DNA of 64,000 nucleotides from Vicinamibacteria bacterium. Lineage in GTDB: Bacteria; Acidobacteriota; Vicinamibacteria; Marinacidobacterales; Marinacidobacteraceae. The notes under the pieces were generated by a model. It was not told the DNA's origin and did no database searches. It saw only the letters and a program-made list of their open reading frames with translations. The translations under genes were made by a program, and so were the position numbers. Within the stretch, counting starts at the first letter, position 1. Every line of letters begins with the position of its first letter. Shown piece after piece: positions 13,607 through 56,540 of the stretch. Where the stretch lies: the NCBI GenBank assembly GCA_963668695.2, contig CAXXLQ010000004.1:2624001-2688000 (forward strand). Reading direction: 5' to 3'.

Positions 13607-13690
13607 GGAGCGCCGGCCAGTTCTCCCCCAGTTCTCCCCCGGTGGGGGCCTTCAGACCGGCATCGCCCCGCCTAGCGGGGCAAGACTCAC
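13607..13690 (+). repeat. REP-like repeat carrying a stuttered 18-nt micro-insert
   Basis: GGAGCGCCGG-[CCAGTTCTCCC CCAGTTCTCCCCCGGTGGGGG]-CCTTCAGACCGGCA plus a second hairpin. Confidence 0.75.
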
Positions 13691-13751
13691 GGTGCTGTTC
13701 GCGGTGATGACGCCACCGGGCAAGGAAAGCTGACCTCCCGGTCGCCGTTGG

Positions 13752-15203
13752 TCAGCGCCGGTAATCGAGCGGCGGCGGCCGGTCGCCCAGCAGCGGCTTG
13801 TACACGAAATCCGGTCCCCGCGCGGCGTTCAACTCGGCGAGCGCCGCGGTCAGGTAGGACGGATCCTGAAAGAGGTCGGCGCCGGTGCGCGCGAGCACCT
13901 GGGCGGCAAGATGCATGCCCTTCAGGCCGATGCTCGTTCCGCCGCAGGCGACCGCCTGCCAACTGTGCGCCGGCGTTCCCGGTACCCAGGTGGCAGTGCG
14001 GAACTGCGCGGTGGGAACCACCCAGCTCACGTCGGCCACGTCGGTCGAACCGCCCGCCGGCGTTCTCGCCCAGTCCATGACCTCCTCCTGGGAGCCGATC
14101 GGACGCGGTTGCTGCAGGTGCTTCTGGATTTCCTCGGCGAAAGCCCGCTCCTCGTCGGTGTAAGTGAAGCCGCCGACCGCCTTCATGTTCTTGAAGAGGA
14201 GCCGCCCGAGGTGCTCGTTCGGAAGGATGTTGTAGATCCCGTGGATCATCTCGTGCTCGACTTCGGTCTCGGTGCCGAGCGCCGCCGCGTCGGCGGTCTT
14301 CAGAATCCGCTCCCAGTTGGCGCGGGCCGTTTCCACCGAGGGATGGCGGTTGTAGTAATAGACCTCGGCGAAGTTGGGGACCACATTCGGGGCTTCGCCC
14401 CCCCGGGTGATCACGTAGTGGATCCGGCTGCGCTCATTGACGTGCTCGCGCATCATGTTCACCATGAAGTTCATGGCCTCCACCGCGTCGAGCGCCGATC
14501 GGCCCTGGTCCGGAGCTCCCGCCGCATGGGCGGAGACGCCCCGGAACCGGAACTTGGCCGACAGGTTGGCGAGCGAATCGCCCGGGCTCGCGTCGTTCCG
14601 GTCCCCGGGATGCCAGGCAAGCACGGCGTCCACGTCGGCAAAAAGACCCTCCCGGACCATGTACACCTTGCCGGCGCCGCCCTCTTCAGCGGGGGTGCCG
14701 TAGACGCGGATCCTTCCGGGCGTTCCCGACCGTTCGAGCCAGTCCCGGATTGCGAGTCCCGCGGCCACCGAGGCCGTCCCGAACAGGTGGTGACCGCAGG
14801 CATGCCCGGCGCCCACGCCTTCGCGCTCCATGGGTTCCGGGACGGCCGCCTGGCTCACGCCCGGCAGGGCGTCGAACTCGGCGAGGATGCCGATCACCGG
14901 GCTTCCCGATCCCCACTCGGCGACGAACCCGGTGGGCATCCCGGCGACCCCCGCTTCCACCGAGAAACCGCCGGCGGTGAGCTGTTCCTGGAGGAGGGTT
15001 GAACTCTGTTCCTCCTGGTAGCCCACTTCGGCCCAGTCCCAGATGCGAAGCGCCACCTCCTCGAAATCGGTGCGCTGGGCGTTCAGGAACCGGGAGACGA
15101 CGGCAGCGGCGTCCCCGCTCTGGGCGGCGGACAGCATCGGCAGGGAAAACACGGAAAACAGGACCAGGTTCAGCACACGGGCAACTCGCATCGGAACTCG
15201 CAT
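13752..15203 (-). CDS. M20 family amidohydrolase (AbgB-like)
   Basis: AEFDALPG, GHACGHH, GTPAEEGG, WHPG, GGSTDV; signal peptide; GAGGAGG RBS. Confidence 0.88.
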   Translation of the reverse strand: MRVPMRVARVLNLVLFSVFSLPMLSAAQSGDAAAVVSRFLNAQRTDFEEVALRIWDWAEVGYQEEQSSTLLQEQLTAGGFSVEAGVAGMPTGFVAEWGSGSPVIGILAEFDALPGVSQAAVPEPMEREGVGAGHACGHHLFGTASVAAGLAIRDWLERSGTPGRIRVYGTPAEEGGAGKVYMVREGLFADVDAVLAWHPGDRNDASPGDSLANLSAKFRFRGVSAHAAGAPDQGRSALDAVEAMNFMVNMMREHVNERSRIHYVITRGGEAPNVVPNFAEVYYYNRHPSVETARANWERILKTADAAALGTETEVEHEMIHGIYNILPNEHLGRLLFKNMKAVGGFTYTDEERAFAEEIQKHLQQPRPIGSQEEVMDWARTPAGGSTDVADVSWVVPTAQFRTATWVPGTPAHSWQAVACGGTSIGLKGMHLAAQVLARTGADLFQDPSYLTAALAELNAARGPDFVYKPLLGDRPPPLDYRR

Positions 15204-15316
15204 TGGGGGGCCTCCTCGGTCGGCGGGTGGGGTCTCGGAGCGGCTTTCGAGTGTACCCGGCTGCGGCGGCATTTCCGTTCTGTCGTAAGACTGGATCGGC
15301 GCGTTACAGTGGGCGC

Positions 15317-16300
15317 ATGACGATTGGAAAGACCCGATCAGCCTTGATGGTGGTTCTCATGCTGCTGTTCGCCGCCGTAGGGCAGGGTGATGACGTTGGT
15401 GCGAAGAACGGCACGCCGGCCGACGCAGAAGAGGCGAAGGAGGACATCAGGGAGCAACTCTCCGATTCCCTGGCAACGGACGCGACGACCGGGCTGCGGG
15501 GCGCGCTGGGGTTCTCGGTGGCCCCCGCGCAGAGCAACTACGGATCGTCCGGGATGCGGATCGAACTGTTCGGGCGCGTGGGTCTGCCGTTGCTCAACGT
15601 CTCGGCGGAGGACTCGGTCGGCTTCATGGGTGACCTGCCGGCTGGCGTGGAGGGCGGCGGGGGCACCATTTCCGCCTCCAGGCTCAGTTCGGAATTCGGT
15701 TGGGGCGTGGGAGCTCGCCTCATGTCGGGGAACTGGGGAATCGAAGGGAGCTACAACATCTTCGAGAGTCTCGATCTCACGCCGTCCTGGCTCGTCGCGG
15801 ATTCGAATGGAGCGACAGCGGAAGAAGCCGCACAGTTCGGCCAGCCGCTGGTGCCATCCCAGGCCCGACTGGTCCTCGGACAGGCCATCCGGGTCTTCCA
15901 GCTTGGGGGCGGCGCGGAGCTTTCCCTGGGGGTCGGCGCAGGGTGGCTCCAGGCGACCGATTCGGGAACGGATCTGCTGCTCTCCGGCGGGCCGTCCCAG
16001 TTCCCGTCGGAGGACCTCCCCATTCTGCCCGCCTTCGTTCCCGAGGTCGAATTCACCGCCGACCGGAAATCCGTGGTCTATGCCGGCTCGTTGGGAGTCG
16101 CGTTCCGTTTCGGCCGAATCATGCTTCGTCCCCGGGTTGACGTGGTGGTGTCCCGAGCCCTGACCACCGACCTGGCGATTGGGTTCGGGGACCTCGAGGA
16201 GTTGGGAGCGGAGGGGTTGGGTGAAGTCGGATTCCACTACGGCACGAGCGTGAAGCCGACCATCTTCCTCTTTTTGTTGGACATCGGCCTCGGGAACTGA
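15317..16300 (+). CDS. Hypothetical exported protein, possible outer-membrane beta-barrel
   Basis: Signal peptide, Gly/aromatic amphipathic strands, similar to the next gene. Confidence 0.55.
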   Translation: MTIGKTRSALMVVLMLLFAAVGQGDDVGAKNGTPADAEEAKEDIREQLSDSLATDATTGLRGALGFSVAPAQSNYGSSGMRIELFGRVGLPLLNVSAEDSVGFMGDLPAGVEGGGGTISASRLSSEFGWGVGARLMSGNWGIEGSYNIFESLDLTPSWLVADSNGATAEEAAQFGQPLVPSQARLVLGQAIRVFQLGGGAELSLGVGAGWLQATDSGTDLLLSGGPSQFPSEDLPILPAFVPEVEFTADRKSVVYAGSLGVAFRFGRIMLRPRVDVVVSRALTTDLAIGFGDLEELGAEGLGEVGFHYGTSVKPTIFLFLLDIGLGN

Positions 16301-16358
16301 CCGGGGCGAGGGAGACGCCGCGGACCGCCGCAGCCTCCAGGCCGGCATTGGAGGAACC

Positions 16359-25287: not shown

Positions 25288-25485
25288 CAGCCGGCAGACA
25301 ACGTCACGCGGTGTTCGACCGGCGATGCATCCCGGCTGAACCGCGCCGCTTCGCGTCGCTCATCGTTGCGCTCCGGTCGAAAGACACGGGGTATTCCTCC
25401 CTTGCGCGCCTTGTCAGCCGGGCGCCTCACCGGCCAGTTCTCCCGGTGGGGGCCTCGGCACTCGCGCCACCTTGTCCACCGGCTA
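25288..25485 (-). mobile_element. MITE-like element (198 bp = 179+19) between antitoxin and toxin
   Basis: Reverse complement of the 8731 element with one micro-insert at 25434; flanked by TTAG and CTAG. Confidence 0.85.
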
Positions 25486-25832: not shown

Positions 25833-25873
25833 TGCCGGCCAGAGGCCGGCCCAGTTCTCCCGGTGGGGGCTCC
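25833..25873 (-). repeat. REP-like repeat with an 18-nt micro-insert at a second internal site
   Basis: TGCCGGCCAGAGGCCGGC|CCAGTTCTCCCGGTGGGG|GCTCC. Confidence 0.7.
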
Positions 25874-25958: not shown

Positions 25959-28565
25959 CTACAACTCCGCAAGCGCCTCGCGGAGGGCTCTGGCGGCGTC
26001 CGCGACGGCTTCCCCGTCATCCCCGTCCAGCGTGATGCGAGTCCCCTCGGAACCGGGGTACGAGCCGATCTCGACTGTCGGATAGGCCGCAACCAGGCGG
26101 TCAAGAAGGGGGATCAGCTCCTCTTCGGGGCGCGGAACCAGTTCCTCGTCGGCGAAGTACCGAGGTCCTTCGGGAAGACACTCGGCGAGGATCCCGAGCT
26201 TCTTTTCGAAGACGGGTGGCAGGCCCGGGAGGATCCAGACGTTCCGCATGACGACCACCGGCCAGGCGCCGCTTTGTCCTTCGCGGAGCTCGCATCCCTC
26301 CGGAACGCGGGCGAGATCGCGGTGGGTGGTTTCGAGGCCGCGCTGCCTCAGCGTGTCGAGAAAGCGGGGGTGATGGATCACCCCGGTTCCGAACGCGCGG
26401 GCGACGCCCTCCATGGTGACATCGTCGTGCGTGGCGCCTACACCTCCGGAAGTGAACACGAGATCGTGACCCGCGGCGAGTGCGGCCGTCTCCGCGGCGA
26501 TGACTTCCGGTTCGTCGGGAATCGTCAACACCCGCTGCAGAGCCACCCCCTTTTCCCGAAGCAGGCGGGCGAGGAGGCGGGTGTTCGTGTCGGTCACTTT
26601 CCCGGAGAGGATTTCGTTGCCGATCACCAGGAAGGCGGCGGTCCTTCTCCGCGGCGCCCGAGGGGATCCCTCCGGCGGGGGGCGATCCGTCGCTGCGGGG
26701 TCCGGGTCCTCCGGAAGGGAGTCCCGCACGGCGGCGAGAAAGCGGGCGCCGTACTTCTCGATCTTCGCCGGGCCGACTCCGCGCAGGCGCGCGAACTCCG
26801 CCGCGGAGGGCGGCCTGCGGGCGGCCATTTCGTGGAGGGTGGCGTTCGAGAACACCATGAAGGCCGGAAGCCCTTCCTCCCGTGCGATAGCGAGGCGCAG
26901 CGCCCGCAGCTTCTCGATGAGAGCCGGGTCGGGAGCGGGCGCTTCGCCGTCGGCCGCTGCGGAGTCGCGGGACTCTTGGTCCGGGGGCGCCGCCTTCGGA
27001 CGGGTCAGGGTGAGGGACTCCCGGTTCCGGAGAAACGCCCACCCCGCGGGGGTCAGGGACATGGTTGGGAACCCGCTGTCGCCGGCGCGGCGGAGCAGGT
27101 CCCGGGCGACGAGCTTGTCCGCGGTGTCCCGCAAATCCTCCTCCCGATGATCGCGTGCGATGCCGTGGACGCTCAGCCGGTCGTGCCCGAGGTCCAGAAC
27201 CCGCTTCGCCCGCGAGCCGCGCAGCACCGCCACGACGTGGGCCATGCCGAAACGCTGTCCGGTGCGGACCACCCCGGAGAGGATCTTCTGGGTGATCTCG
27301 GTGGCGTCGTACTCCTCGATCTCGCCGCCGGTTCCGGGTCCCAGGCAGTTGTCGCAGCCCCCGCAGTTCTCCAATTCCTCAAGCGAGGCGTCCGAGAAGT
27401 AGTCGAGCAGGTAGCGTCGCCGGCAGGAGGTGAGTTCGCAGTAGGCGATCATCTGGGCGAGCCTTTCCTGCGCGCGCTGGCGTTCGGCGGGATCTTCGAT
27501 CTCGTGGATGAACCGCTGCTGGGCGGCCCGATCGGCGACGCTGAAGAACAGGACACATTCGCTCGAAAGGCCGTCGCGTCCGGCGCGCCCGGTCTCCTGG
27601 TAGTAGCCCTCCACCGACTTCGGGAGGTTGTAGTGCGCAACGAGGCGCAGGTCGGGCATGTCAATCCCCATCCCGAACGCGATCGTGGCCGCCACGATCA
27701 ACGCCTCCTTGCTGGCGAACCGGTCCTGCGCCGACCGGCGCTCCTCGTGGTCGAGTCCGGCGTGGTAGGCCAGAGCGCGGAAACCCAGCGCGCGGAGCCG
27801 CTCGGCCACCGATTCCGTTTCCCTCCGCGAGAGGCAGTACACGATGGCGGACTCCCCCTCGTGTTCCCGCAGGAGTCCGACGAGAAGGTCGAAGGAACGC
27901 CGTTTGGGTCGCACCCGGTAGTTGAGGTTGGGACGATTGAAGCTCCCCACGAAGAACTCGGGGTCCTCCATCCGGAGTTCGGAGGCGATTTCCCGGCGGA
28001 CCCGCTCAGTGGCGGTCGCGGTGAGCGCCAGAAAGGGGGCCGCCGGGAAGCGGTCGCGCAGCGCTCCCAGGTTCCGGTAGTCAGGCCGGAACTCATGACC
28101 CCACTGGGAGATGCAGTGGGCCTCGTCCACCGCCACCAGCGCCACCCGGATCCGTTCGAGGAACCGCCCGAAGCCCGCGGAGGCGAGACGCTCCGGCGCT
28201 ACGTAGAGCAGCTTTACCTTGCCGGCTTGCGCCTCCTCCCGGACGAGCCGCGCCTCTTCGGAGGTGAGCGAACTGTTGAGGGAGCGGGCGGCGATCCCCC
28301 GCGCCCGGAGCGCATCCACCTGGTCCTTCATCAGGGCGATCAGGGGCGAAATGACCAGGGTGACGCCGTCGAGGGCGAGCGCCGGAAGTTGGTAGCAAAG
28401 CGATTTGCCCCCGCCAGTGGGCATCAGCACCACCGTGTCCCGCCCGGCCAGGACGCTGGTGATCGCCGGTTCCTGCAGCGGTCGGAAGCTCTGGTAGCCG
28501 AAGTGTTCCTTCAGCAGGGAAAGCGGAGTGGGCTTCGCCGACCCGGCCTCTGGTGCGCTCTGCAT
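25959..28565 (-). CDS. recQ: DNA helicase RecQ fused to a C-terminal molybdopterin-binding (CinA N-terminal/COG1058-like) domain
   Basis: MPTGGGKSLCYQ, VDEAHCISQWGHEFRP, YYQETGRAGRDG, Zn-binding CRR...CGGCDNC, RQC, HRDC; then IGNEILSGK..DTN, TSGGVGATHDDVT, ILPGLP. Confidence 0.9.
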   Translation of the reverse strand: MQSAPEAGSAKPTPLSLLKEHFGYQSFRPLQEPAITSVLAGRDTVVLMPTGGGKSLCYQLPALALDGVTLVISPLIALMKDQVDALRARGIAARSLNSSLTSEEARLVREEAQAGKVKLLYVAPERLASAGFGRFLERIRVALVAVDEAHCISQWGHEFRPDYRNLGALRDRFPAAPFLALTATATERVRREIASELRMEDPEFFVGSFNRPNLNYRVRPKRRSFDLLVGLLREHEGESAIVYCLSRRETESVAERLRALGFRALAYHAGLDHEERRSAQDRFASKEALIVAATIAFGMGIDMPDLRLVAHYNLPKSVEGYYQETGRAGRDGLSSECVLFFSVADRAAQQRFIHEIEDPAERQRAQERLAQMIAYCELTSCRRRYLLDYFSDASLEELENCGGCDNCLGPGTGGEIEEYDATEITQKILSGVVRTGQRFGMAHVVAVLRGSRAKRVLDLGHDRLSVHGIARDHREEDLRDTADKLVARDLLRRAGDSGFPTMSLTPAGWAFLRNRESLTLTRPKAAPPDQESRDSAAADGEAPAPDPALIEKLRALRLAIAREEGLPAFMVFSNATLHEMAARRPPSAAEFARLRGVGPAKIEKYGARFLAAVRDSLPEDPDPAATDRPPPEGSPRAPRRRTAAFLVIGNEILSGKVTDTNTRLLARLLREKGVALQRVLTIPDEPEVIAAETAALAAGHDLVFTSGGVGATHDDVTMEGVARAFGTGVIHHPRFLDTLRQRGLETTHRDLARVPEGCELREGQSGAWPVVVMRNVWILPGLPPVFEKKLGILAECLPEGPRYFADEELVPRPEEELIPLLDRLVAAYPTVEIGSYPGSEGTRITLDGDDGEAVADAARALREALAEL

Positions 28566-28679
28566 TCGGCACCCGGCAGCCTACCCGACCGCGCTCGGCG
28601 GATGGCCGAGCGGCGGTTTGGAGTGCCTTCGTTGTGGTGTCCAGCAGGCGCGGCCCATCCCGTCCCGGAACCGGGGGCA

Positions 28680-29837
28680 TGCCGCCGTGTGGTGGGAGCG
28701 GCTCACTCTTCAGGAGGTGTCCCTCGCCGGGTTCGTCCGGAGCGTGGGACATCGCGAACCACCGGCGCTCGACAGGATCCTGATCGCGCGGGCGCGGCAG
28801 TGCCCGCTGGTCCTGCTGCTGGACGAGGCGCATACGCTCGACCTCGGGCGGGTTTAGCAGCCGGTGATGAAACCCACGCGGCCCAGTTCTCCCGGTGGGG
28901 GCTCGGCCGGCGATCCATCCCGGCCAAACAACCGGTGATGAAACCCACGCGGCCCAGTTCTCCCGGTGGGGGCTCGGCCGGCGATCCATCCCGGCCAAAC
29001 AACCGGTGATGAAACCCTCGCGGCACCAGTTCTCCCGGTGGGGGCTCACGTGGGTTCCATCCATCCCGGCTGAACCGCGTCGCTGCGCGCCGCTCATCGT
29101 TGCGTTTCGGTTGGAATACACGCGGTATTCCTCCCTCACGCGCCTTGTCAGCCGGGCCCCCACCGGGAGGACTGGCCCCACCGGGAGAACTGGGCCTCGC
29201 CCCCACCGGGAGAACTGGCCGACCTCGGCGCTCACGTGGGTTCCACCACCGGCTGTTCACCGCGTCGCTTCGCGCCGCTCATCGTTGCGTTTCGGTCGGA
29301 ATACACGCGGTATTCCTCCCTCACGCGCCTTGTCAGCCGGGCCCCCACCGGGAGAACTGGGCCTCGCCCCCACCGGGAGAACTGGGCCTCGCCCCCACCG
29401 GGAGAACTGGCCGACCTCGGCGCTCACGTGGGTTCCACCACCGGCTGTTCACCGCGTCGCTGCGCGCCGCTCATCGTTGCGTTTCGGTCGGAATACACGC
29501 GGTATTCCTCCCTCACGCGCCTTGTCAGCCGGGCCCCCACCGGGAGGACTGGCCCCACCGGGAGAACTGGGCCTCGCCCCCACCGGGAGAACTGGCCAGC
29601 CTCGGCGCTCACGTGGGTTCCACCACCGGCTGCTAGCTGAACGCGAGCCAAATGGTGGGACGTGACCTTCCCTTCCTGCTCGTGCTCGCCGGGACGCCCA
29701 ACCTGGAGACGCACCTGAACCGGTTGGGCGCCTCGTGCTGGAGTCGCGCCGAACGCCCGCGTATCGGGACGCTGGATGGGAACGCCACCGCCCTGGCTTT
29801 CCGGGAGCCGTTCCGGCCCGTAGCCGCCGTCCTCTGA
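28680..29837 (+). pseudogene. AAA+ ATPase gene remnant interrupted by a MITE array
   Basis: Walker B PLVLLLDEAHTLD before the array; the same frame resumes after it as LNASQMVGRDLPFLLVLAGTPNL; no Walker A or start visible. Confidence 0.7.
28858..29632 (-). mobile_element. Tandemly amplified MITE array (71-bp end units plus three ~185-190-bp units) with about 12 micro-inserts
   Basis: Ends CAGCCGGTGATGAAACCC / GGGTTCCACCACCGGCTG flanked by TTAG and CTAG; 71-bp period at 28858, 28929, 29000. Confidence 0.8.
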
Positions 29838-29844
29838 ACGGCGT

Positions 29845-30684
29845 TCAGGGTTCGCTTACCAGGTATGCAATCCAGGTTTCGTCGGCGGAGCCTTCGGTGA
29901 CCTCGTCGAACTCCCCGTTGCCGTCACCGTTTTCGTCGGCCCCTTCCCAGAGCACGACGGTTTTCGAGAACCCCGCCTCCGCCAGGAGTTCATGGAGCTC
30001 GGGAAGCGACCAGAAACGCCACTGGTAGCGGAAGGCGTTTCTCAGCCGGCTCCCATCCGGAAACTCGTAGTGGATCGCGCACCGCATGCGTCCGCTGATG
30101 GGGTCGAAGGCCACCTGGTCCCAGATGAAGTCGAATCCGTCCTCTTCGCGCGCGTACTCCTTTTCTTCGTGGCAATCCGAACCACCGTAGGCGTCGATAA
30201 AGAAGAGTCCGTCGGAGTTGAGAGTTCTTCGGACGCGCTCGAAGTAGTCCCGCACCAGGTCCCGCGTCTCGAAGATCCAGTAGCTGAAGTTCATCGCGGC
30301 GATCAGATCCACCCGGGGCTCGGTGACATCCAGGACGTCGCTTTCGACCAGGTCGATCCGCCCTTGTTCCGAGCGGCTCAGTTTCGCGATGTTGTTTTCG
30401 CGGCCCCAGGCGAGCGGGTCCGGATCGAGATCCACCCCGATCGCCCGGCTTTCGGGATGCCGTACGACAAATTCGCAGGAGAGGGCGGCGGTGCCGCAAA
30501 AATCCTCGCGGAAGGAGAGCGCCCGGCGAGCGCGACGGCGGTGAAATTCGTCATCCAGGAAAGCGGCGTCGGCCGGCGCGTCCTGAACCGAATTCTGGTA
30601 GAGCAGATAGCGGTCCGCCCGGTCGGCCATCGACGGACGGCGCCTGCCGCCCCGGCTCGGGCTTCGACTCACGCGACGACTCAT
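29845..30684 (-). CDS. Class I SAM-dependent methyltransferase
   Basis: REDFCGTA motif I variant, GVDLD, NFSYW. Confidence 0.8.
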   Translation of the reverse strand: MSRRVSRSPSRGGRRRPSMADRADRYLLYQNSVQDAPADAAFLDDEFHRRRARRALSFREDFCGTAALSCEFVVRHPESRAIGVDLDPDPLAWGRENNIAKLSRSEQGRIDLVESDVLDVTEPRVDLIAAMNFSYWIFETRDLVRDYFERVRRTLNSDGLFFIDAYGGSDCHEEKEYAREEDGFDFIWDQVAFDPISGRMRCAIHYEFPDGSRLRNAFRYQWRFWSLPELHELLAEAGFSKTVVLWEGADENGDGNGEFDEVTEGSADETWIAYLVSEP

Positions 30685-30699
30685 GCGGCGAGACCGTAA

Positions 30700-30878
30700 C
30701 AGCCGGTGGTGGAACCCGGGTGAGCGCCGAGGCCGGTGAGGCGCCCGGCTGACAAGGCGCGTGAGGGAGGAATACCGGGTGTATTTCGACCGAAACGCAA
30801 CGCAGAGCGCCGCAAGGCGGCGCGGTTCAGGCGGGATGGATCGCCGCTCGAACGCCGCCTGGGTTTCCCCACAGGCTG
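30700..30878 (+). mobile_element. 179-bp MITE-like element, second empty copy
   Basis: Collinear with 8731..8909, same length; TAA...TTA flanks; variant TIRs. Confidence 0.85.
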
Positions 30879-30951
30879 TTAAGGGTTACCCCGGAACGAA
30901 CGTCAGGAGGTGTGATTCAGGGTCATCGGGGGGCTACTCCCCGGCTCTTCG

Positions 30952-31350
30952 TCAGTGCAGCGTGACCGGTTCACTCAACGTGAACTCCGCGATCTCGACC
31001 TTGAAGCGGTCCCCTCCGGGGATCTCCATCAGGTAGGAGCCTCGCATCGAGCCGAAGGGTGCGCGCAGTGGACACCATGAGGAGTAGTGAAAGGACTCGC
31101 CCGGGACGAGATAGGGGCGAGCCCCGACCACTCCGGGACCTCGCACCTCTTCGAGCTGTCCTTCGCCGTGCTCGATGACCCAGTGACGACTCAGGAGTTG
31201 CACCAATTCCTGTGACTCGTTGGTGATGGCGACGTCGTACCGAAACAGCCACGCCGGGTCCGGCTCGGGGCGCCGGTCGGCGAAACGCGCTTCCACATCC
31301 ACTCGAATTCCCCGGGTTATGGAGGAAGAAGTGAAGACCTCCTGGCGCAC
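30952..31350 (-). CDS. apaG: ApaG protein
   Basis: VQLLSRHWVI, EVRGPGVVG, FHYSSWCPL, GSMRGSY. Confidence 0.92.
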   Translation of the reverse strand: MRQEVFTSSSITRGIRVDVEARFADRRPEPDPAWLFRYDVAITNESQELVQLLSRHWVIEHGEGQLEEVRGPGVVGARPYLVPGESFHYSSWCPLRAPFGSMRGSYLMEIPGGDRFKVEIAEFTLSEPVTLH

Positions 31351-31490
31351 GGATTTGATCGTAGCACGCGGTCAGCCAGCCCGTGGGCGGAGTCGCGTGC
31401 GCACCGAGGTCCCACGGGAAGAGTCGGAATTCGCCAGTTGAGCATCCCCCGAGAGAACCGGGCCGCGCGGTTTTGTCCAGGCGCTGGTAG

Positions 31491-31968
31491 CAGCCGGTGG
31501 TGGAACCCGGGTGAGCGCCGAGGCGGGCGAGACGCCCGGCTGACCAGGCGCGTGAGGGAGGAGCCCCCACCGGGAGAACTGGCCCGGGTGTATTTCGACC
31601 GAAACGCAACACAGAACGGAGCGCAGCGGAGTGGGTAACAGCCGGTGGTGGAACCCGGGTGAGTGCCGGGTCCGGCGAGGCGCCCGGCTGACCAGGCGCG
31701 TGAGGGAGGAGCCCCCACCGGGAGAACTGGGCCGCGCGGGTTTCATTACCGGCTGTTTGGCCGGGATGGATCGCCGGCCGAGCCCCCACCGGGAGAACTG
31801 GGCCGCGCGGGTTTCATTACCGGCTGTTTGGCCGGGATGGATCGCCGGCCGAGCCCCCACCGGGAGAACTGGGCCGCTTGGGTTCCACTACCGGCTGTTT
31901 GGCCGGGATGGATCGCCGGCCGAGCCCCCACCGGGAGAACTGGGCCGCCTGGGTTTCGCCACCGGTTG
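31491..31968 (+). mobile_element. Nested/tandem MITE array with 71-bp repeats and five micro-inserts
   Basis: Two left ends (31491, 31639); 71-bp period at 31711, 31782, 31853, 31924. Confidence 0.8.
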
Positions 31969-31988
31969 GTCGGGCTAGGGTTCGCACC

Positions 31989-33992
31989 GTGAGCGCTTCT
32001 TGCAGCCGATTCCCGGTGGCCGTGTTCATCGCGGCTCTCTCCGTGGTCGCGTTTGGCCGCGGAGCGTCCGCCGGGGAAGACCGCCTCCTGGTCCTTGCGG
32101 TGGATGGCGGCGGTTACGAGCTTGTTCAGGAGTTTCTCCGGGACGGAGTACTCCCGAACTTCTCCCGGCTTCGCGAGGAGGGGGCCTTTTCGGACGGCAT
32201 GGTGACCGCCTTCCCCTCGAAAACTGCGGCGTCCTTCGCCATGATCTGGACCGGGCTCCCCGGGCGGGAAAGCGGAATCACCGGGAACTCGATCCTTGCG
32301 CTGCCGGCGGCTTCCCATTCCCTGCTGGACACGCGCGACGGGTTCTCCGCCGCATGGCTCCGTACCGATCCGCTCTGGACGCGGGTGGCTCGCGCCGGCC
32401 GTCGCGCCGTCGCGCTTCATACGACCCACACCTACCCACTCGATGCTGCATTGAGCCGGCTGCGTAGCGAAGAACGCGGACAGCTCTTCATCCTCACCGG
32501 ATATGGAGACGTTCGGTTGCCTCCAGCGACCCTCAATGAGGTGCGCAATCCTTTCCTCACGGAGTCTCCGGTCCCTCTCGCCGAAGGACAGGAGTCCGCG
32601 CGGGTTGGTGGCAGACCCGGGTTCTTCCGGTTCGAAGTGGGGGAGTCGCGTTTCCTCGGAGTCTTCCTCGATGATCCCCTGACTCCGGCGAGCGGCTGGG
32701 ACACGTTCGGGGTGATGCAGGGGCCGGGCGAGCGGGATCCGGAAGCAGGAGCGCCGATCTGGCTCGCGCGGGTCGGGATAGGGCCCGACGCCGGCTTTTC
32801 CGGGCCCATCAGCGCCGACTCCGGAGGCCGCCGCGTGGAGTTCCAGGTGCGAGCCTTCGCCGCGGCGCCCCCGGCCTCCGGATCTCCGGGGCAGTACGTC
32901 GTTTTCCGCGGCGGAGCGAGCGAAGTAGCGATCCATCCGGAGGAGATGTGGCGAGAGCGGCTCGGCGAACCCGAGTGGCCCCGGACGGTTGGCGCCCCCG
33001 AGTACGCCTCGGGCCGGCTGGGCAGACCGAGGACGGAGGGTGGCGAGGGGATCGCCGAGTCGCGCCTTCTCGAAATAGCCGGCGCGATTGCGGATTCCGC
33101 GCTCGTCCACCTGGATGCCGCCGCGTCCGTGCCGGACTGGAACCTCATCGCTCTCTATTTGCCGATCGCCGACGAGATCGGCCATCTGCTCTACGGGAGG
33201 CTCGACGATCGGCTCGTTACGCATGATCTGTCGCTGGACCGAGCGCTCCGGCCGGTTCTCGCCGGAGCGTTCGGCGAGGTGGACCGCGTTCTCGGACGAA
33301 TGTTTGCGCTGGCCGAAGCGTCGGGGTCCCACCTCTTAGTGGTGAGCGATCACGGGATGTCCGGTACCGATCGGCTCCTGCACGTCAATGTGGCGCTTGA
33401 ACGGGCCGGGCTCCTGGCCTTCGGCCCCGACCGAACGGTGGATCTTTCGCGCACGAAGGCGATGCTGCTGACGACGGCGGACGGCAGCGTGGCCATCAAC
33501 CGGGCTTCACGTCCGCAGGGGATCGTGTCGCCGGATCAGGAACCGGAGGTGGCCGCCGCGGTTCGGGCCGCGCTCCTCGAGATTCGCAGCGACGGAGAAC
33601 CTGTCGTTACCGGTTTCCTCGTACCGAGCACCGATGGAAGGGTGCAGCCCGGCGGTCCAACGACCGGGGATCTCTTCCCCGTGTTGCGGCCGGGGTTCGT
33701 CCCCTCCGCCCGGTTCGCGGAAGACGTCGTGATGCCGGCCCGCGCGGCCGGGAACCACGGCTTCGCCCCCACCCGGCGCGACATGCTCGCGGTGCTGGCT
33801 GCCTGGGGGCCGAGGATTCCCCGGCAGTCGGAATGGCCACGGGCCAGTGCCCTGGATGTGGTTCCCACCGCACTGGATCTCCTGGGGCTGCCGGCGGATC
33901 CGACCCTGCCGGGGCGCTCGCTGCTCGGGGGAGCCCCGCTGGTCCGTCCCACCGGCGGCGCCCGGGGAACGCCGTCGCCCCGCGGACGTTAA
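31989..33992 (+). CDS. Alkaline phosphatase superfamily protein (nucleotide pyrophosphatase/phosphodiesterase)
   Basis: LAVDG, FPSKTAA..WTG, DEIGH, VVSDHGM, GNHGF; signal peptide; start trimmed to exclude the repeat-derived N-terminus. Confidence 0.82.
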   Translation: MSASCSRFPVAVFIAALSVVAFGRGASAGEDRLLVLAVDGGGYELVQEFLRDGVLPNFSRLREEGAFSDGMVTAFPSKTAASFAMIWTGLPGRESGITGNSILALPAASHSLLDTRDGFSAAWLRTDPLWTRVARAGRRAVALHTTHTYPLDAALSRLRSEERGQLFILTGYGDVRLPPATLNEVRNPFLTESPVPLAEGQESARVGGRPGFFRFEVGESRFLGVFLDDPLTPASGWDTFGVMQGPGERDPEAGAPIWLARVGIGPDAGFSGPISADSGGRRVEFQVRAFAAAPPASGSPGQYVVFRGGASEVAIHPEEMWRERLGEPEWPRTVGAPEYASGRLGRPRTEGGEGIAESRLLEIAGAIADSALVHLDAAASVPDWNLIALYLPIADEIGHLLYGRLDDRLVTHDLSLDRALRPVLAGAFGEVDRVLGRMFALAEASGSHLLVVSDHGMSGTDRLLHVNVALERAGLLAFGPDRTVDLSRTKAMLLTTADGSVAINRASRPQGIVSPDQEPEVAAAVRAALLEIRSDGEPVVTGFLVPSTDGRVQPGGPTTGDLFPVLRPGFVPSARFAEDVVMPARAAGNHGFAPTRRDMLAVLAAWGPRIPRQSEWPRASALDVVPTALDLLGLPADPTLPGRSLLGGAPLVRPTGGARGTPSPRGR

Positions 33993-33993
33993 G

Positions 33994-34244
33994 CAGCCTG
34001 TGGATAAAGTGGCGTGAGCGCCGAGAGCGGCGAGGCCCAGTTCTCCCGGTGGGGCCAGTTCTCCCGGTGGGGGCCCGGCTGACAAGGCGTGCGAGGGAGG
34101 AGCCCCCACCGGGAGAACTGGCCCGAGTGTCTTTCGACCGAAGCGCAACGATGAGCGACGGGAAACGGCGCGGTTCAGCCGGGATGGATCGCCGCTCGAG
34201 CCCCCACCGGGAGAACTGGGCCGCGGCACTTTGTTCACAGGTTG
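33994..34244 (+). mobile_element. MITE-like element with four 18-nt micro-inserts (251 bp)
   Basis: Aligns gap-free to 8731..8909 apart from inserts at 34037, 34055, 34104 and 34202. Confidence 0.88.
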
Positions 34245-34272
34245 CTCATTCCGGAATGCGTGCCAATACGCG

Positions 34273-35526
34273 ATGGATGTAGCCAGAGAGGGAGTCGCCG
34301 AGAATCGGCGCCGGCGGCGCCTTGTCTTCGGCGCGCTCGCGGGTGCCCTGTTCGTGGCGCTCGCCCTGTTCGCCCTCCGCTTGCAGCCGGCGGCCCCGAG
34401 CGTGGATCGGGAAACGGTTTTCATTGACACCGTACGTCGCGGAGAGATGTTGCTGACGGTGCGGGGACCGGGCACGCTGGTGCCGGTAGAGGTTCGGCGG
34501 ATCGCGGCGGGAAGCTCCGGGAGGGTCGCTCGCGTGCATGCGCTCCCCGGGGTCCGGGTGGAGTCCGATACGGTGATTCTGACGCTCGAGAATCAGAACC
34601 TGGCTCAAGAACTGACGGGGGCGGAGCTGGAACTCGCGGCCGCCGAGGCAAATCTGGACGACCGGCGAGTTCAGTTGCGCCGTCAGGTGCTGAATCAGCG
34701 ATCACTGCTCGCCTCGGTCGACGCGGAAGCCCGCCAGGCCGCCCTCGACGCGGAGGCGGACGCCGAGATCTACGCGGAGGGGATCATCGGCCGGATCGCT
34801 CTGGAAGACAGTCAAGACGCCGCTGCGGAACTCGGGACACGAGCTCGGCACGAAGCCGAACGACTTCGGCTCGCCGAAGCGGTGGCGGCGGCGGAGCTCG
34901 CGGCCGAAGAGGCGGGCGTCGCGCGACTCCGCGCCGTTTTCGAGCTGAAACGCGAACTCGTCTCACGGCTCGAGGTTCGCGCAGGAATTGCGGGCGTCCT
35001 TCAGGAGGTGTCTGCGGAGGCCGGCCAGCAGGTATCGGAGGGCGACAACCTCGCTCGGGTCGCCGAACCCGATCACCTGAAGGCGGAACTGAGAATCGCC
35101 GAAGTCCAGGCGAAGGACATCGAAATCGGGCAAACGGCGCGGGTGGACACCCGGAACGGAATCGTCGCCGGTCGCGTAACCCGAGTGGAGCCCACGGTCC
35201 GCGACGGCGCCGTGATCGTGGATGTGCAGTTGACCGATGACTTGCCGCGCGGAGCCCGTAGCGAACTCTCGGTAGATGGTCTCGTTGAGATTGAGAGCCT
35301 CGACGACGTGCTGCACGTGGGACGTCCCGCGTTCGGGCAGGAGGGGGAAGTGGTGGACCTGTTCCGGCTGGTTGCCGGCGGGGACCACGCGGTGCGGGTA
35401 CGGGTGCTCCTCGGCAAGGCTTCGGTCAACACCGTAGAGATCCGCGAGGGGCTGGCGGAGGGCGACACCGTGATCCTCTCCGACACCTCGGCCTGGGAGG
35501 GGCAGGACCGTATCCGTCTACGATGA
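34273..35526 (+). CDS. Efflux periplasmic adaptor (HlyD/MacA-like membrane fusion protein)
   Basis: N-terminal TM helix, VRGPGTLVP, coiled-coil hairpin, lipoyl half-motifs, GLAEGDTVILSD. Confidence 0.88.
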   Translation: MDVAREGVAENRRRRRLVFGALAGALFVALALFALRLQPAAPSVDRETVFIDTVRRGEMLLTVRGPGTLVPVEVRRIAAGSSGRVARVHALPGVRVESDTVILTLENQNLAQELTGAELELAAAEANLDDRRVQLRRQVLNQRSLLASVDAEARQAALDAEADAEIYAEGIIGRIALEDSQDAAAELGTRARHEAERLRLAEAVAAAELAAEEAGVARLRAVFELKRELVSRLEVRAGIAGVLQEVSAEAGQQVSEGDNLARVAEPDHLKAELRIAEVQAKDIEIGQTARVDTRNGIVAGRVTRVEPTVRDGAVIVDVQLTDDLPRGARSELSVDGLVEIESLDDVLHVGRPAFGQEGEVVDLFRLVAGGDHAVRVRVLLGKASVNTVEIREGLAEGDTVILSDTSAWEGQDRIRLR

Positions 35527-38259: not shown

Positions 38260-38441
38260 GCGCCATGATCGTCTGTTGCCCGGACCTATCCGGCGATGGC
38301 GGAGCGTTCTTCCCGATTGCGCTGGTGGCGCCGGGCCGTCCCCGCCGCCTGCAACGAAATGCGGACAAGGGCGAGGGCGACGGGATTCCTTTTCCCCGGG
38401 GGGACGGCCCAACCGGGAGAATTGGCCGGCGTTCCCTTCCC

Positions 38442-47938: not shown

Positions 47939-48086
47939 GGAACGCCGACTTCAGACCGGCACTGCGGCCCGGAGGGCCGCGAGACACCCTGTGCTCCTTG
48001 TCCGGATGGCGCCGCCGGGCAGGGAACGCTGGCCAGTTCTTTCGGTGGGCGCCTTCAGCCCGGCATAGCCCGCCGAAGGCGGGCGA
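47939..48086 (+). repeat. Two REP-like repeats, the second with a degenerate micro-insert
   Basis: GGAACGCCGACTTCAGACCGGCA and GGGAACGCTGG-CCAGTTCTTTCGGTGGGC-GCCTTCAGCCCGGCA. Confidence 0.65.
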
Positions 48087-55282: not shown

Positions 55283-55596
55283 TTGTATGTACCACCAACG
55301 AGGTTCCCGGCGCCGAGATCGCCGAGGTTCTGGGTGTGGCCCGCGGCAACACGATCCGCGCCCGCCACCTCGGCCGCGACATCATGGCCGGCCTCAAGGG
55401 GCTCGTCGGGGGCGAGGTCGAGTCCTATACGAAGCTCATGGCCGAAAGCCGCGAGCAGGCGATCGCCCGAATGATCGAGCATGCCGAGGCGCTCGGCGCC
55501 GACGCCATTCTCGGAATGCGGCTCACGACTTCCGTCTTGATGACTACCGCCGCCGAGATCCTTGCCTACGGCACCGCCGTGAAGCTGCGTAGGTAG
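55279..55596 (+). CDS. YbjQ/UPF0145 family protein
   Basis: GRDIMAGLKGLVGGE..YTKL..SREQA..GADA..AYGTAV. Confidence 0.92.
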   Translation: MIVCTTNEVPGAEIAEVLGVARGNTIRARHLGRDIMAGLKGLVGGEVESYTKLMAESREQAIARMIEHAEALGADAILGMRLTTSVLMTTAAEILAYGTAVKLRR

Positions 55597-55600
55597 AGAA

Positions 55601-55826
55601 GGGAACGCCGGTGTTCACACCGGCATCGCTGCGCGAGAGCGCAGCGAAACCCGCGTACCGCTCCTCGCGCAGATGGCGCGCGGCAGCGGGAACGCCGGCC
55701 GCCGGCCGGCACCGCCCGCCGGAGGCGGGCGGACAACGTAAACCCTACGCACCCTCACGGCGCGCGACAGCGGAGCGCTGGCCTCCGGCCGGCATCGCCG
55801 CCCGCAGGGCCGCGAGACCGCGTACC
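55601..55826 (+). repeat. Cluster of three empty REP-like repeats
   Basis: GGGAACGCCGGTGTTCACACCGGCA, GGGAACGCCGGCCGCCGGCCGGCA, GGAGCGCTGGCCTCCGGCCGGCA, each followed by a hairpin. Confidence 0.7.
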
Positions 55827-55864
55827 CCCCGATCCGCGTCCACAGCAGATAGGCTAGGAAAGCC

Positions 55865-56356
55865 ATGTCCGATATCGGCCCGCCGGAGCGTGATCGCGGA
55901 CGCTTCCATGAGGATTTCCACGTCGGCCAGCGGATCGTGCATCCTTTGGGCCGCACCATCCTGTCGACCGACAACTCCTGGTTCTCGCTGCTCACCCAGA
56001 ACCAGAACCCGATCCACATCGACCACCACCACAGCGAGCGCACCCCGTTCGGCAAGCCGCTCGTGAACTCGTGCCTCACGCTGGCGCTCGCCACCGGTCA
56101 GTCGGTGAACGACCTCACCCGGAACGTGATGGCGAACCTCGGCTGGGAGGAGGTGCGGCTGCCCGCGCCGCTGTTCGAAGGCGACACGCTGTACTCGGAG
56201 AGCGAAGTGCTCGCTACCCGGGAATCCCGCTCTCGTCCGGAAGCCGGGATCGTGACCGTCCGCACCCGCGGGAAGAATCAGGACGGCGTGGTGGTGATCG
56301 AGTTCCGGCGCACGTTCCTGATCTGGAAGCGCGACCACGCGCCGCGAGGACGCTGA
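55865..56356 (+). CDS. MaoC family dehydratase
   Basis: GRFHEDF, DNSWF..NQNPIHID, NLGWEEV, PLFEGDTL. Confidence 0.9.
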   Translation: MSDIGPPERDRGRFHEDFHVGQRIVHPLGRTILSTDNSWFSLLTQNQNPIHIDHHHSERTPFGKPLVNSCLTLALATGQSVNDLTRNVMANLGWEEVRLPAPLFEGDTLYSESEVLATRESRSRPEAGIVTVRTRGKNQDGVVVIEFRRTFLIWKRDHAPRGR

Positions 56357-56387
56357 ACTCAGCGAATTTCGCTCGCTTCCAGCGGGC

Positions 56388-56540
56388 GATGCCGGTCTGA
56401 TCTGAGGGCCCCCGCCGGGAGGATCGGCCGGCGCTCGTGGACTAGGTCGGTGCGAGAGGAGTGAATAGGACGTGAGTTTCGCGGCCTGCGGCCGCGATGC
56501 CGGTCTGAAGGCCCCCACCGGGAGGACTGGCCGGCGCTCC
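56388..56540 (-). repeat. Two REP-like repeats, each with a micro-insert
   Basis: Reverse complement of the second copy: GGAGCGCCGG-CCAGTCCTCCCGGTGGGGG-CCTTCAGACCGGCATCGCGGCCGCAGGCCGCG; a degenerate copy lies at about 56390-56437. Confidence 0.7.

Follow-up and report, generated by a model that had tools for sequence, protein, structure and literature searches.

An 18-nt module gained recurrently and with exact borders inside the repeats of a marine acidobacterial genome

How does one fixed sequence of 18 nt come to lie, time and again, inside other repeats? The question is raised by a window of 64,000 nt (the whole stretch of DNA that was analysed), in which a preliminary description had counted about 28 copies of an 18-mer by eye. 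A search allowing up to 2 mismatches recovers 25 of these, 21 of them exact, while those at 13617, 48033 and 56410 are degenerate copies; an additional 3-mismatch match at 41358 was missing from that count. When the window was shuffled 100 times, the mean number of matches was 0.01 and 25 was never reached. The features are as follows (strand given for 18-mer copies; G000 is the genome of the window and the other G numbers are relatives).

13617..13650, + strand: degenerate, partly duplicated 18-mer with an indel in a REP-like hairpin host (GGAGCGCCGG...GCCTTCAGACCGGC); C4:2637617 and 2637628 are window 13617 and 13628
25434..25451, + strand: exact 18-mer in a REP-like context (CACCGG^18^GCCTCGGCAC), from the sequence search; its 3' half can pair with its left flank
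25851..25868, + strand: exact 18-mer, single copy, from the sequence search
28719..29716: 998-bp segment without counterpart where G001 and G008 align collinearly, containing a TA-flanked composite MITE array (about 28857-29633) with 12 18-mers, three on the + strand in 71-bp tandem units (28883, 28954, 29026) and nine on the - strand (29158-29595) occupying a1 and a2 in three incomplete MITE copies
30697..30884: MITE-A copy of 188 bp with all sites empty (no 18-mers), absent at the corresponding place in G001
31490..31975: composite MITE-A at a TA site, with five 18-mers on the - strand (31565, 31713, 31784, 31855, 31926)
33992..34247: full MITE-A without counterpart in G001, with a double 18-mer at a2 (+,+; 34037, 34055) and single ones at b (-; 34104) and d (-; 34202)
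38408..38425, - strand: 18-mer with 2 mismatches, 3' of GGGAACGCCGG (REP-like), from the sequence search
48033..48050, + strand: decayed 18-mer with 3 mismatches, from the 3-mismatch search
56410..56427, - strand: decayed 18-mer (CCCCGCCGGGAGGATCGG) with about 4 mismatches in a REP-like hairpin host, from sequence inspection
56513..56530, - strand: variant 18c (CCAGTCCTCCCGGTGGGG) within the REP hairpin GCCGGTCTGAAGGC^18^CCGGC, from the sequence search

The window is one sample of a very abundant sequence. The 4.1-Mb genome holds 1,631 copies with up to 2 mismatches, 1,288 of them exact; in the count of 1,566 made for comparison between genomes, the two strands are balanced (791 and 775 copies). 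Information content falls steeply beyond G-[G/C]-18-G-C (n=1,630), and half-sites occur at background level only. When copies were picked by host anchors only, the minor-allele frequency was 0.005 in the 18-mer columns against 0.049 in the host columns at site b (n=135) and 0.003 against 0.129 at site d (n=127), a variability 10-40 times below that of the hosts. As had been stated before, the 18-mer has no terminal inverted repeats (CCAGTT.. at one end is not an inverted form of ..TGGGG at the other); nor is there a target-site duplication in filled compared with empty forms, which differ by 0-3 replaced bases, a fold of the 18-mer and its flanks better than that of shuffles (z -0.9 to +1.0), or a stable palindrome of the REP/REPIN type. 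Both flanks are repeated in 1,184 of 1,479 18-mer blocks and both are unique by k-mer in only 60, most of which are diverged repeats. A crude ORF/GC3 finder places 142 of the 1,631 copies inside ORF calls; among the five deepest, which were inspected, three are clear 5' over-extensions, one is unclear and one is an in-frame part of an RND/AcrB-like ORF (C4:393184-396339). The earlier remark that intact coding sequences are free of the 18-mer is, therefore, nearly right genome-wide, with this one in-frame copy as the exception.

Two hosts had been described, which is too few: the 18-mer is found in MITE-A and MITE-C, which are both TA-flanked, in REP-like hairpins of at least three contexts and, on rare occasions, in a gene. 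MITE-A has inverted termini (CAGCCKGTGG...CCACMGGCTG), TA flanks and a presence or absence that varies among relatives, as befits a TA-flanked MITE, and may, judging by the TA flanks, be of the IS630/Tc1 kind; the genome yielded neither an autonomous element nor a partner transposase bearing the MITE termini. The four MITE positions, both orientations and empty versions reported earlier are borne out and extend to five sites (a1, a2, b, c and d), each of which occurs both filled and empty. Site b is empty in 276 and filled in 285 of 587 anchor pairs, site a is empty in 219 of 599, site c is empty in 333 and filled in 56 of 506, and site d is empty in 224 and filled in 159 of 465; the REP hairpins are dimorphic in the same way. 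A fill has exact borders and substitutes 0-3 target bases, following reproducible junction rules: GTAT->GG[18]GC at b, GCGT->GC[18]GC at d, GGY->GG[18]GC at a1 and CGGC->CG[18]GG at c. Typical targets are GC-rich and the 18-mer usually lies 3' of CCGG or GGC.

A simple account of this pattern is that the 18-mer entered each site once and has since been carried passively, by amplification of MITE and REP subfamilies and by tandem duplication. A few stereotyped junction classes do hold most copies, linked junction substitutions exist, MITE copies present in one sister species are missing in another, and the number of 71-bp tandem units varies (four at the 31490..31975 locus in G000, two in G001). 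However, passive carriage would tie filling to the host subfamily, and this is not what is seen among 256 canonical MITE-A copies: 28 of 32 filling patterns are present, and mean r2 is 0.018 between filling and SNPs compared with 0.113 (maximum 0.95) between SNPs, in a test that handles paralogues as one population and in which some host positions (e.g., the loop base beside site b) may mutate recurrently and so lower r2. Two SNPs that bracket site b have an r2 of 0.81 with each other and 0.00 with the filling of b, and filling of b likewise has an r2 of 0.00 with SNPs 3, 10 and about 25 nt away. The low variability of the 18-mer relative to its hosts also stands against this account, as do orthologous MITE copies that differ at 18-mer sites only and 18-mer switches between nearly identical contigs. 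We consider passive carriage very improbable.

The orthologues show these changes individually. The TA site of the composite MITE-A at 31490..31975 is occupied in common with G001 and G004 and is empty in G014 and G009; its a2 site is empty in G000 and G001 and holds a precise 36-bp double in G004, with private host bases kept on its left (2 nt away) and on its right (13 nt away). At C4:2778234, where the flanks are about 99% identical, G001 has b filled, a double at a2 and an extra 71-nt unit, and the private variants between the changed sites are unaltered. With G004 as the outgroup, G001 has gained fills at d and at the MITE-C site as well as a second unit at a2, and G000 has gained site b, against one possible loss; gains thus exceed losses in a small polarised sample (about 5 events in 400 kb) from alignments that are error-prone within repeats (17 G000 copies 'misaligned', many site states scored '?'). 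Shared filling across all three genomes is limited to 6 of 226 site columns. Between contigs that are 99.3-99.9% identical, 5 of 15 indel events of at least 6 nt are 18-mer switches; the contigs concerned, C1 and C3, may represent either haplotigs of different strains or genuine duplications. The repeated independent acquisition proposed in the preliminary description is therefore observed as recent, recurrent gains at defined sites, with sister species differing by exact 18-mer gains, and the converse idea, that all copies trace to one or two junctions, is largely refuted by the orthologue, SNP and contig comparisons.

The 18-mer is not confined to one species. It is present in 15 of 15 other genomes searched of the genus and in 20 of 24 genomes of the family, where four further genera carry it, and is absent from two sister families (0 of 8 and 0 of 8 genomes, a sample that includes the unpublished genome G033). 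G019 has a new site type, e, and G018 has another, f, together with a self-nested 18-mer and hairpin arrays. As the relatives are metagenome-assembled genomes and the genome studied here has near-duplicate contigs, one might suspect adapter sequence, or mistakes made in assembling or polishing long-read metagenomes. However, the 18-mer is no such artefact, because exact copies are carried by many independent assemblies (produced in different years by different methods, fragmented bins of short reads among them); copies also occupy orthologous places in different species and decay by mutation as real DNA does, and the surrounding 8-kb stretch is present in runs of several studies. We give an artefact almost no credence.

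DNA uptake sequences (DUS and USS) are conserved at the family level, have about a thousand copies and are strand-symmetric, often forming inverted pairs; they are common in genes and arise by point mutation. The 18-mer may be such a signal, or another kind of host-level site (that of a nucleoid protein, or a terminator), maintained by selection or uptake bias, with insertions arising as rare template-switch or SPDIR-type accidents. It resembles DUS and USS in being exactly conserved across the family, with hundreds to more than 1,000 copies equally divided between the strands, and inverted pairs make strong hairpins: + and - copies pair within the MITE hairpin, and 33992..34247 as a single strand forms one long hairpin (-99.7 kcal/mol, z -11.0). 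In SPDIR, an ectopic single strand replaces a short patch via microhomology annealing (bioRxiv 10.1101/2023.11.22.568220), much as the 18-mer brings donor-specific neighbours; here, however, one fixed unit recurs faster than point substitution at the same loci. Moreover, the 18-mer is almost missing from coding DNA, lies nearly always within other repeats and appears as an exact insertion rather than by point mutation, and we regard an uptake or binding signal spread by accident as improbable.

Other known systems offer partial parallels. BIME/REP systems are accompanied by a RAYT (Y1) gene, which the PF01797 search did not find here, and we know of no report of BIME motifs gained or lost at fixed sites independently of the host repeat. 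The 18-mer forms a mosaic of the BIME/NIME kind, being a short conserved module that is combined with other repeats in arrays that vary among relatives. To our knowledge, it is also 3-10 times shorter than any MITE. The BIMEs of Escherichia coli similarly join palindromic units to short conserved pieces, which serve to bind proteins (PMC2817692, PMC3333891). The 20-bp dRS3 of Neisseria is likewise a short repeat with hundreds of copies in intergenic mosaic arrays with other repeat families, whose copy number varies between syntenic arrays of close relatives; it is hypothesised to be the binding site of a site-specific recombinase, with a phage recombinase as the candidate (PMC1797815). However, dRS3 has 6-bp terminal inverted repeats and a variable 8-bp core (PMC1797815) and bounds RS blocks, whereas the 18-mer is non-palindromic and invariant and sits at fixed positions within MITEs and hairpins; and whereas the candidate phage recombinase uses dRS3 itself, the IS110 elements found here target the neighbouring hairpin. 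REPs are known targets of insertion sequences (PMC1525189), and nested MITEs and REP-targeting insertion sequences, IS110 in this genus among them, also place a mobile sequence inside another repeat, but the 18-mer lacks inverted termini and a target duplication and replaces 0-3 bases. No known class of mobile DNA explains its spread with exact borders.

An enzyme encoded elsewhere had been suggested as the writer of the 18-mer, either a reverse transcriptase, a HUH/RAYT-type transposase or a recombinase. The first two fare badly: in G000, PF00078 (RVT_1) had no match and there were no first-look candidates, although a very divergent reverse transcriptase could still be encoded, and PF01797 (Y1_Tnp/RAYT) had no match in G000 or in the 18-mer-rich G004, G018 and G019. 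The best TnpB domain match in G000, at 21.7 bits, is under the cut-off of 26.3, so that neither gene expected of an IS200/IS605 or TnpB-linked element (TnpA of the Y1 type, or TnpB) was detected. A recombinase or other sequence-specific factor is possible as the agent. IS110 was also considered, with the 18-mer as its footprint, end or target, and rejected: all seven aligned copies adjoin the junction GAAGGTC/CGGCGTTCC, a hairpin of the REP-like type (seen in full at the G000 copy), their ends do not resemble the 18-mer, G000 has 1 IS110 copy and 1,566 18-mers while G014 has 10 and 87, and the scarcity of half-sites points the same way.

A dedicated trans-acting enzyme (transposase- or recombinase-like, or a fixed-template polymerase) that inserts the 18-mer de novo each time, with junction bases determined by the target, would nevertheless account for much of what is seen: exact borders in at least 12 different target contexts across genera, partial 18-mers at no more than background level, classes of target motif, targets hit twice per element (C^GAGGCGC in G018; ..GC^..CCCGGCTGA in both MITE arms), insertion of the 18-mer into its own CCGG^T, filling unlinked to SNPs 3-25 nt off, and several sites altered in one orthologous MITE with private SNPs kept. 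The domain searches and the ends, target and copy number of IS110 tell against such an enzyme, and the bases that travel with the 18-mer are hard to obtain from a fixed template. At a2, GT goes with almost all single fills and GC with almost all doubles, the second unit of doubles is often the 18c variant (CCAGTCC...), fills of the MITE-C site bring A..GG, and switches between the 99.3-99.9%-identical contigs bring allele-specific neighbour bases. De novo insertion at every event is thus rather unlikely in our judgement. The earlier notion that a fixed oligomer is written is weakened: the 18-mer is an independent unit, but site-specific neighbours hitch-hike with it. As these neighbours and the CCAGTCC... 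variant travel along, the newest copies appear to have been copied from filled paralogues and not from one master template. Donor-specific neighbour bases are co-transferred as in gene conversion, but nearby SNPs are not converted (r2 0.00; private variants kept).

The reading that we favour, and to which we give an even chance, is that the 18-mer is a self-contained, family-wide module that colonises GC-rich sites by rare primary jumps combined with short-patch copying between paralogues. Primary jumps would set the whole 18-mer, as a rule with G and C after it, in a new target, and the filled state would then pass among hundreds of paralogous repeat copies. Because filling is nearly independent of SNPs, orthologues gain the 18-mer exactly and neighbour bases co-travel, recent spread looks mostly like very short copying from filled paralogues (the insert and about 2 bases on each side), with MITEs transposing in the usual way and 71-bp units duplicating in tandem as further routes. 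The simplest form of patch copying may be a heteroduplex between paralogues in which large-loop repair proceeds towards the insertion and flanking mismatches are restored. Such loop-limited repair is a proposal, and needs a patch of about 22-40 nt that spares a SNP 3 nt away; usual bacterial gene-conversion tracts are far longer.

That the 18-mer hardly varies between sites or between genera suggests that a sequence-specific factor reads it; this factor is pure inference, since no enzyme or binding protein was found. The most likely reading of the sequence is that the 18-mer is a candidate protein-binding site. One may go further and tentatively suppose, although we would sooner doubt than accept it, that the 18-mer is a micro-insertion of 18-20 bp, with neither termini nor duplication, moved in trans by a putative protein that recognises GC-rich targets (CCGG^T, GGC^G) as well as the 18-mer itself and is conserved in this uncultured marine Acidobacteria family, and that spread among paralogues is homing-like, biased towards insertion and due to the same machinery. 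If this is true, the 18-mer would rank as mobile DNA of the smallest kind observed so far. A possible lead to the factor is the MITE's own transposase. The 18-mer can be written as CAG + TTCTC + CCGGTGGGG and the MITE terminus as CAG + CCGGTGGTGG, a likeness that is short and could be chance, and the orientation of the 18-mer matches the nearer MITE terminus at four of the five MITE-A sites.

The 18-base unit CCAGTTCTCCCGGTGGGG on which the preliminary description was built is borne out: the window holds 25 copies at ≤2 mismatches, 21 of them exact, against a mean of 0.01 over 100 shuffles, none of which attained 25. The list of copies counted by eye stands for these 25, while three other listed places are decayed or rearranged copies. 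The window corresponds to contig C4, positions 2624001-2688000, of the genome under study (G000; 4,095,246 bp in four contigs, 67.5% G+C). Across that genome we find 1,631 copies at ≤2 mismatches (1,288 without a mismatch, 278 with one and 65 with two), a count slightly raised by the small contigs C1 and C3 (52 and 14 copies) and equal, by our arithmetic, to about 0.7% of the DNA. They lie in 594 islands, 253 of which consist of a single 18-mer. A per-position count over 1,630 copies gives near-total conservation across the 18 bases and partial conservation for two bases on either side (G-[G/C]-18-G-C), followed by an abrupt drop to background. Ten-base words from the left half occur merely 19-22 times in the genome beyond the full copies; hence there are no frequent half-copies and no evidence of an insertion sequence (IS) splitting the unit.

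Most copies reside in other repeats. In a 13-mer test, both flanks were repeated in 1,184 of 1,479 18-mer blocks and seemingly unique in just 60, most of these being visibly diverged MITE or REP copies. The principal host, MITE-A, is an element of ~180 bp with termini CAGCCKGTGG...CCACMGGCTG and TA on both flanks, whose termini occur ~500 times in each orientation on the chromosome contig C4. When sites are defined by host anchors, independently of the 18-mer itself, all those in MITE-A are dimorphic by exactly 18, 19 or 36 bases. Host B comprises REP-like hairpins (one case is GGGAACGCCGGTCTTCAGACCGGCA -> GCCGG[18]GCCTTCAGACCGGC, where [18] is the unit), and MITE-C is a second TA-flanked MITE with termini similar to those of MITE-A. 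All ~25 anchored MITE-C copies in G000 are empty, while filled copies number four, two and four in the relatives G001, G004 and G008, respectively.

Sites of the 18-mer, with the empty -> filled junction, anchor pairs in G000 and filling frequency in 256 canonical MITE-A copies
MITE-A site a1: GGY -> GG[18]GC; filling frequency 0.29
MITE-A site a2: GC^GC -> GC[18][18]GC, singles GC[18]GT; filling frequency 0.32
MITE-A a region: 599 anchor pairs, 219 empty, the remainder with one to three 18-mers at a1 and/or a2
MITE-A site b: GTAT -> GG[18]GC; 587 anchor pairs, 276 empty, 285 filled; filling frequency 0.41
MITE-A site c: CGGC -> CG[18]GG; 506 anchor pairs, 333 empty, 56 filled; filling frequency 0.15
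MITE-A site d: GCGT -> GC[18]GC; 465 anchor pairs, 224 empty, 159 filled; filling frequency 0.36
REP site: GGT -> GG[18]GC
MITE-C site: GAT -> A[18]GG

Genic 18-mers are very rare. One lies in frame at G000:C4:394435, within an RND/AcrB-like ORF (C4:393184-396339) of high GC3 throughout, and may represent six residues inserted into a genuine protein; it reads PHRENW and has a twin at C1:39964. Several unusual arrangements were also seen. A 998-bp composite MITE array with 12 18-mers (window 28719-29716) is missing from both G001 and G008, whose alignments run on across the gap within 0-3 bases; because the flanks read like coding sequence, a gene may have been interrupted here in G000. A mini-MITE of ~75 bp near C4:666800-668300 consists of two termini around one 18-mer. 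In G018, from another genus of the family, the hairpin CCGGACTGGAGTCCGG and the 18-mer form tandem arrays of 44-nt period (L048 and L049, G018:C1:1842650-1843100 and 1848000-1848550) that are superficially CRISPR-like but lack variable spacers.

Comparison of filled and empty forms revealed no target duplication and no inverted ends at 18-mer fills. Each fill replaces 0-3 target bases, reproducibly per site, and there are few target classes, namely, after CCGG and after GGC or TGC. One target word, C^GAGGCGC, is used at two places within one element in G018, and the word ..GC^..CCCGGCTGA is targeted in both MITE arms, as site a2 in G000 and as site e in G019, a genome of another genus. The CCGG^T within the 18-mer is itself a target, giving nested 13+18 copies. 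When empty, site b forms a small, perfect hairpin (GGAATAC...GTATTCC), and other genera retain it, which indicates that the empty form is the older state at this site. Three simple origins were rejected by inspection: the halves of the unit agree at just 4 of 9 positions, against two abutted 9-bp target duplications; the site b junction bases are not complementary to those at a2, against quasi-palindrome correction; and the junctions lack TA, against an excision footprint of a TA-flanked MITE.

Repeated independent acquisition, as had been proposed, is upheld by three lines of evidence: filling is decoupled from host SNPs, gains can be polarised by an outgroup and near-identical contigs differ by 18-mer switches. 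In the 256 canonical MITE-A copies, 28 of the 32 possible filling patterns are present. Linkage between host SNPs spans the whole element (mean r2 0.113, up to 0.95), indicating strong subfamily structure, whereas between filling and host SNPs the mean r2 is 0.018, with a highest value of 0.167 at site c; a SNP pair flanking site b has a mutual r2 of 0.81 but 0.00 with the filling of b. To examine orthologues, G000:C4:2.64-3.06 Mb was compared with its collinear 400-kb segments in G001 (~94-96% identical) and G004. Across 69 analysable islands, only 6 of the 226 columns for 18-mer sites were filled in all three genomes, and much of this turnover reflects gain and loss of whole MITEs. At loci whose host copy exists in all three genomes, several events could be polarised with G004 as the outgroup: G001 gained site d, a second unit at a2 and the MITE-C site (whose flanks are identical in the three genomes), G000 gained site b, one possible loss (a2) falls in G000, and three events assign to the G004 branch or its complement; one locus enters this tally twice, and one FFE call reflects misalignment. 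At window 31490-31975, a2 holds a double 18-mer in G004 and none in G000 and G001, and private host bases at distances of 2 and 13 nt from the change are retained. At C4:2778234, where the flanks are ~99% identical, site b is filled in G001 and a2 carries a double, and this genome also has an additional 71-nt unit bearing a d-type 18-mer as well as a partial MITE of 147 nt; the private variants between the changed sites are unaltered.

Contig C1 (144 kb; 144,504 bp) is 99.3-99.9% identical to C4:304-421 kb and C3 (31 kb; 31,195 bp) is 97.6-99.7% identical to C4:3.505-3.538 Mb. Among 15 distinct indel events of ≥6 nt between them, five are clean 18-mer switches: two between absent and single and one between single and double at a2, and two at b. 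Instead of being plasmids, C1 and C3 could represent strain haplotigs, a reading consistent with the 9.34% 'contamination' value. The remaining contig, C2, is partly similar to the chromosome (91.6% over 3.9 kb).

The unit is far better conserved than its hosts. In copies chosen by host anchors and length alone, the mean minor-allele frequency was 0.005 in 18-mer columns versus 0.049 in adjoining host columns at site b (n=135) and 0.003 versus 0.129 at site d (n=127). Each of the other 15 genomes of the genus that were searched carries the exact 18-mer, at 8 to ~780 copies (≤1 mismatch), and so do genomes of another four genera in the family, among them G018 with 259 copies and G019 with 70; low counts in fragmented assemblies may be underestimates, and closed or near-closed genomes ranged from 0 to 1,566. 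Of the closed genomes in the family, G010 has 15 copies and G020 one, while G017, G022 and G024 have none. In two sister families it was present in 0/8 and 0/8 genomes, one of these genomes, G033, being unpublished and contributing only to this zero count and to the IS110 table. In a scan of one genome per species, exact copies occurred almost only in Candidatus Marinacidobacterium, Vicinamibacteria and Acidobacteria assemblies, from several independent projects, with four unrelated records having a single match each, among the matches listed. This spread over independent assemblies, together with orthologous placement and the fact that some copies decay by ordinary mutation, rules out an adapter or assembly artefact. 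Of the words sampled from the 8-kb stretch around the copies, two metatranscriptome runs contain fractions of 0.47 and 0.32. Among the papers searched, there was none with the 18-mer, its complement or its 16-nt cores, none naming 'Marinacidobacterium' and, for MITEs in Acidobacteria or sponge, nothing relevant among the matches listed.

The form of the newest events bears on how the unit spreads. Single units at a2 are nearly always followed by GT and doubles by GC, and the second unit of a double is often the variant beginning CCAGTCC. In the single/double switch between C1/C3 and C4, the following bases and the second-unit variant change together, and the absent/single switches also alter bases 2 nt to each side. 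At the MITE-C site, the fill junction, A..GG, is identical in three species. Such allele-specific neighbour bases would not be expected of an enzyme writing a fixed oligomer, as had been suggested, but would be expected of copying from a filled paralogue. The writer is therefore weakened, as site-specific bases move with the 18-mer, and copying is favoured. Any patch so copied has to be very short, covering the insert and ~2 bases per side, because SNPs 3-25 nt away are unaffected. In the model that we favour, a heteroduplex would form between paralogous repeats, the large loop then being repaired as one unit with a bias to retaining the insert, while single mismatches would be restored. Ultra-short, insertion-biased copying among paralogues is our best explanation of the recent spread, a reading to which we give an even chance.

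Paralogue copying does not account for everything. The same exact unit occupies twelve or more contexts (a1, a2, b, c, d, e, f, MITE-C, at least three in REPs, one nested in the unit itself and one genic), and new site types have emerged repeatedly across genera; partial copies are absent across these contexts, and half-site words occur only at background level in G000. The origin of new site types with an identical 18-mer is outside the copying model, as is its identity across site types and genera, since copying between non-homologous sites cannot homogenise them. Hence, something appears to read the sequence of the 18-mer, and the simplest reading is that it is a predicted protein site. Two candidate leads are visible by eye: the unit is CAG and CCGGTGGGG with TTCTC between, against CAG and CCGGTGGTGG for the MITE terminus, and at a1, a2, b and d the unit is oriented inward, like the nearer terminus. 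This orientation is reminiscent of the inner binding sites of IR/DR-type Tc1-like elements. In a full MITE-A, plus copies in the left arm pair with minus copies in the right (hairpin −99.7 kcal/mol, z −11.0), whereas the 18-mer on its own has no significant fold. To the existence of dedicated insertion machinery we give a lower but appreciable chance.

Two of the enzymes proposed earlier, an RT and a RAYT, find no support: profile searches gave no RVT_1 match in G000 and no Y1_Tnp/RAYT match in G000, G004, G018 or G019. In the sister-family genomes G034 and G036 (6.9-9.2 Mb), Y1_Tnp (IS200/IS605-type) matches number 76 and at least 81, some G036 copies with an in-frame TAG, while the 18-mer-bearing family has few or none. 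TnpB gave nothing above the cut-off in G000. DDE_3 (IS630-like) gave four matches at three loci, none bounded by MITE-A termini. The IS630-like gene at C4:666800-668300 lies between two MITE-A-type elements at TA sites, but its own termini (GTGTGGTGTCC...) differ, against a role as the autonomous partner of MITE-A; the other two loci have no MITE terminus within ~1.5 kb. A repeated 1,455-bp candidate, found by pairing MITE termini 0.7-3 kb apart, is a gene fragment beside a MITE.

IS110 was also considered. G000 has one copy, and IS110 numbers across genomes do not track those of the 18-mer. Seven aligned copies (G000:C4:481700-484300 and six in G008 and G004; L169-L175) all adjoin a REP-like GAAGGTC|CGGCGTTCC, the G000 insertion point being 9 nt from the 18-mer position in that hairpin, and their ends are unrelated to the 18-mer. 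As numbers, ends and target all differ, IS110 is rejected as the agent. The 18-mer as a split IS target or footprint fails likewise, as half-sites are at background level; with IS110 ends unlike the unit, the suspicion that it is the end or footprint of a known IS is not sustained where IS110 is concerned. The IS110 elements of the genus look active and target-specific, judging from the 5-6 near-identical copies in each of G008 and G004. A search for viral carriers gave one chance match, in low-GC DNA. The window contained no Rfam family at the gathering threshold, and at E≤1 window 28500-34500 gave a single chance-level match.

By the defining tests, the 18-mer does not behave as a MITE, a REP/RAYT system, an RT-templated element, an IS200/605 element, an IS110 end or target or a classical uptake sequence. 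The nearest described systems are mosaic intergenic repeats, and we file it as a variant of that kind. BIMEs, NIMEs and the like have been catalogued for decades, and we know of no mechanism for the assembly of their modules. The 18-mer differs from them in that the unit is invariant and non-palindromic, its sites in MITEs and hairpins are exact and dimorphic, and its filling is combinatorial, decoupled from the host and of measurably fast turnover. The closest system is the neisserial NIME array, a short unit (20-bp dRS3) in hundreds of copies that vary between syntenic arrays (PMC1797815), and E. coli BIMEs are also close (PMC2817692, PMC3333891).

The present case is unusually clean, with one invariant unit, exact borders, ~1,600 copies and five dimorphic sites. 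The MITE that carries these sites exists in hundreds of copies, closed genomes are available for several sister species, and even contigs with 99% identity can be seen to differ by a single event; hence, the rate, direction and donor of each event are measurable, and the question of how mosaic repeats form becomes answerable by read-level population data and a plasmid assay. A dedicated factor, if true, would define a minimal class of mobile DNA not described before and might provide a compact tool for inserting sequences; loop-biased micro-conversion, if true, would be a clear natural example of an insertion driving itself through dispersed repeats.

Two features of C4 were noted in passing. 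Several 18-mer loci at ~30-95 kb have identical 70-nt flanks at ~3.80-3.87 Mb (for example, 34645/3804341, 61069/3834977 and 92470/3866468), and these matches suggest a large duplication within the contig. At C4:976-979 kb and 2554-2556 kb, a G001 segment aligns in many staggered registers ~63 bp apart, which suggests long tandem repeats unrelated to the 18-mer.
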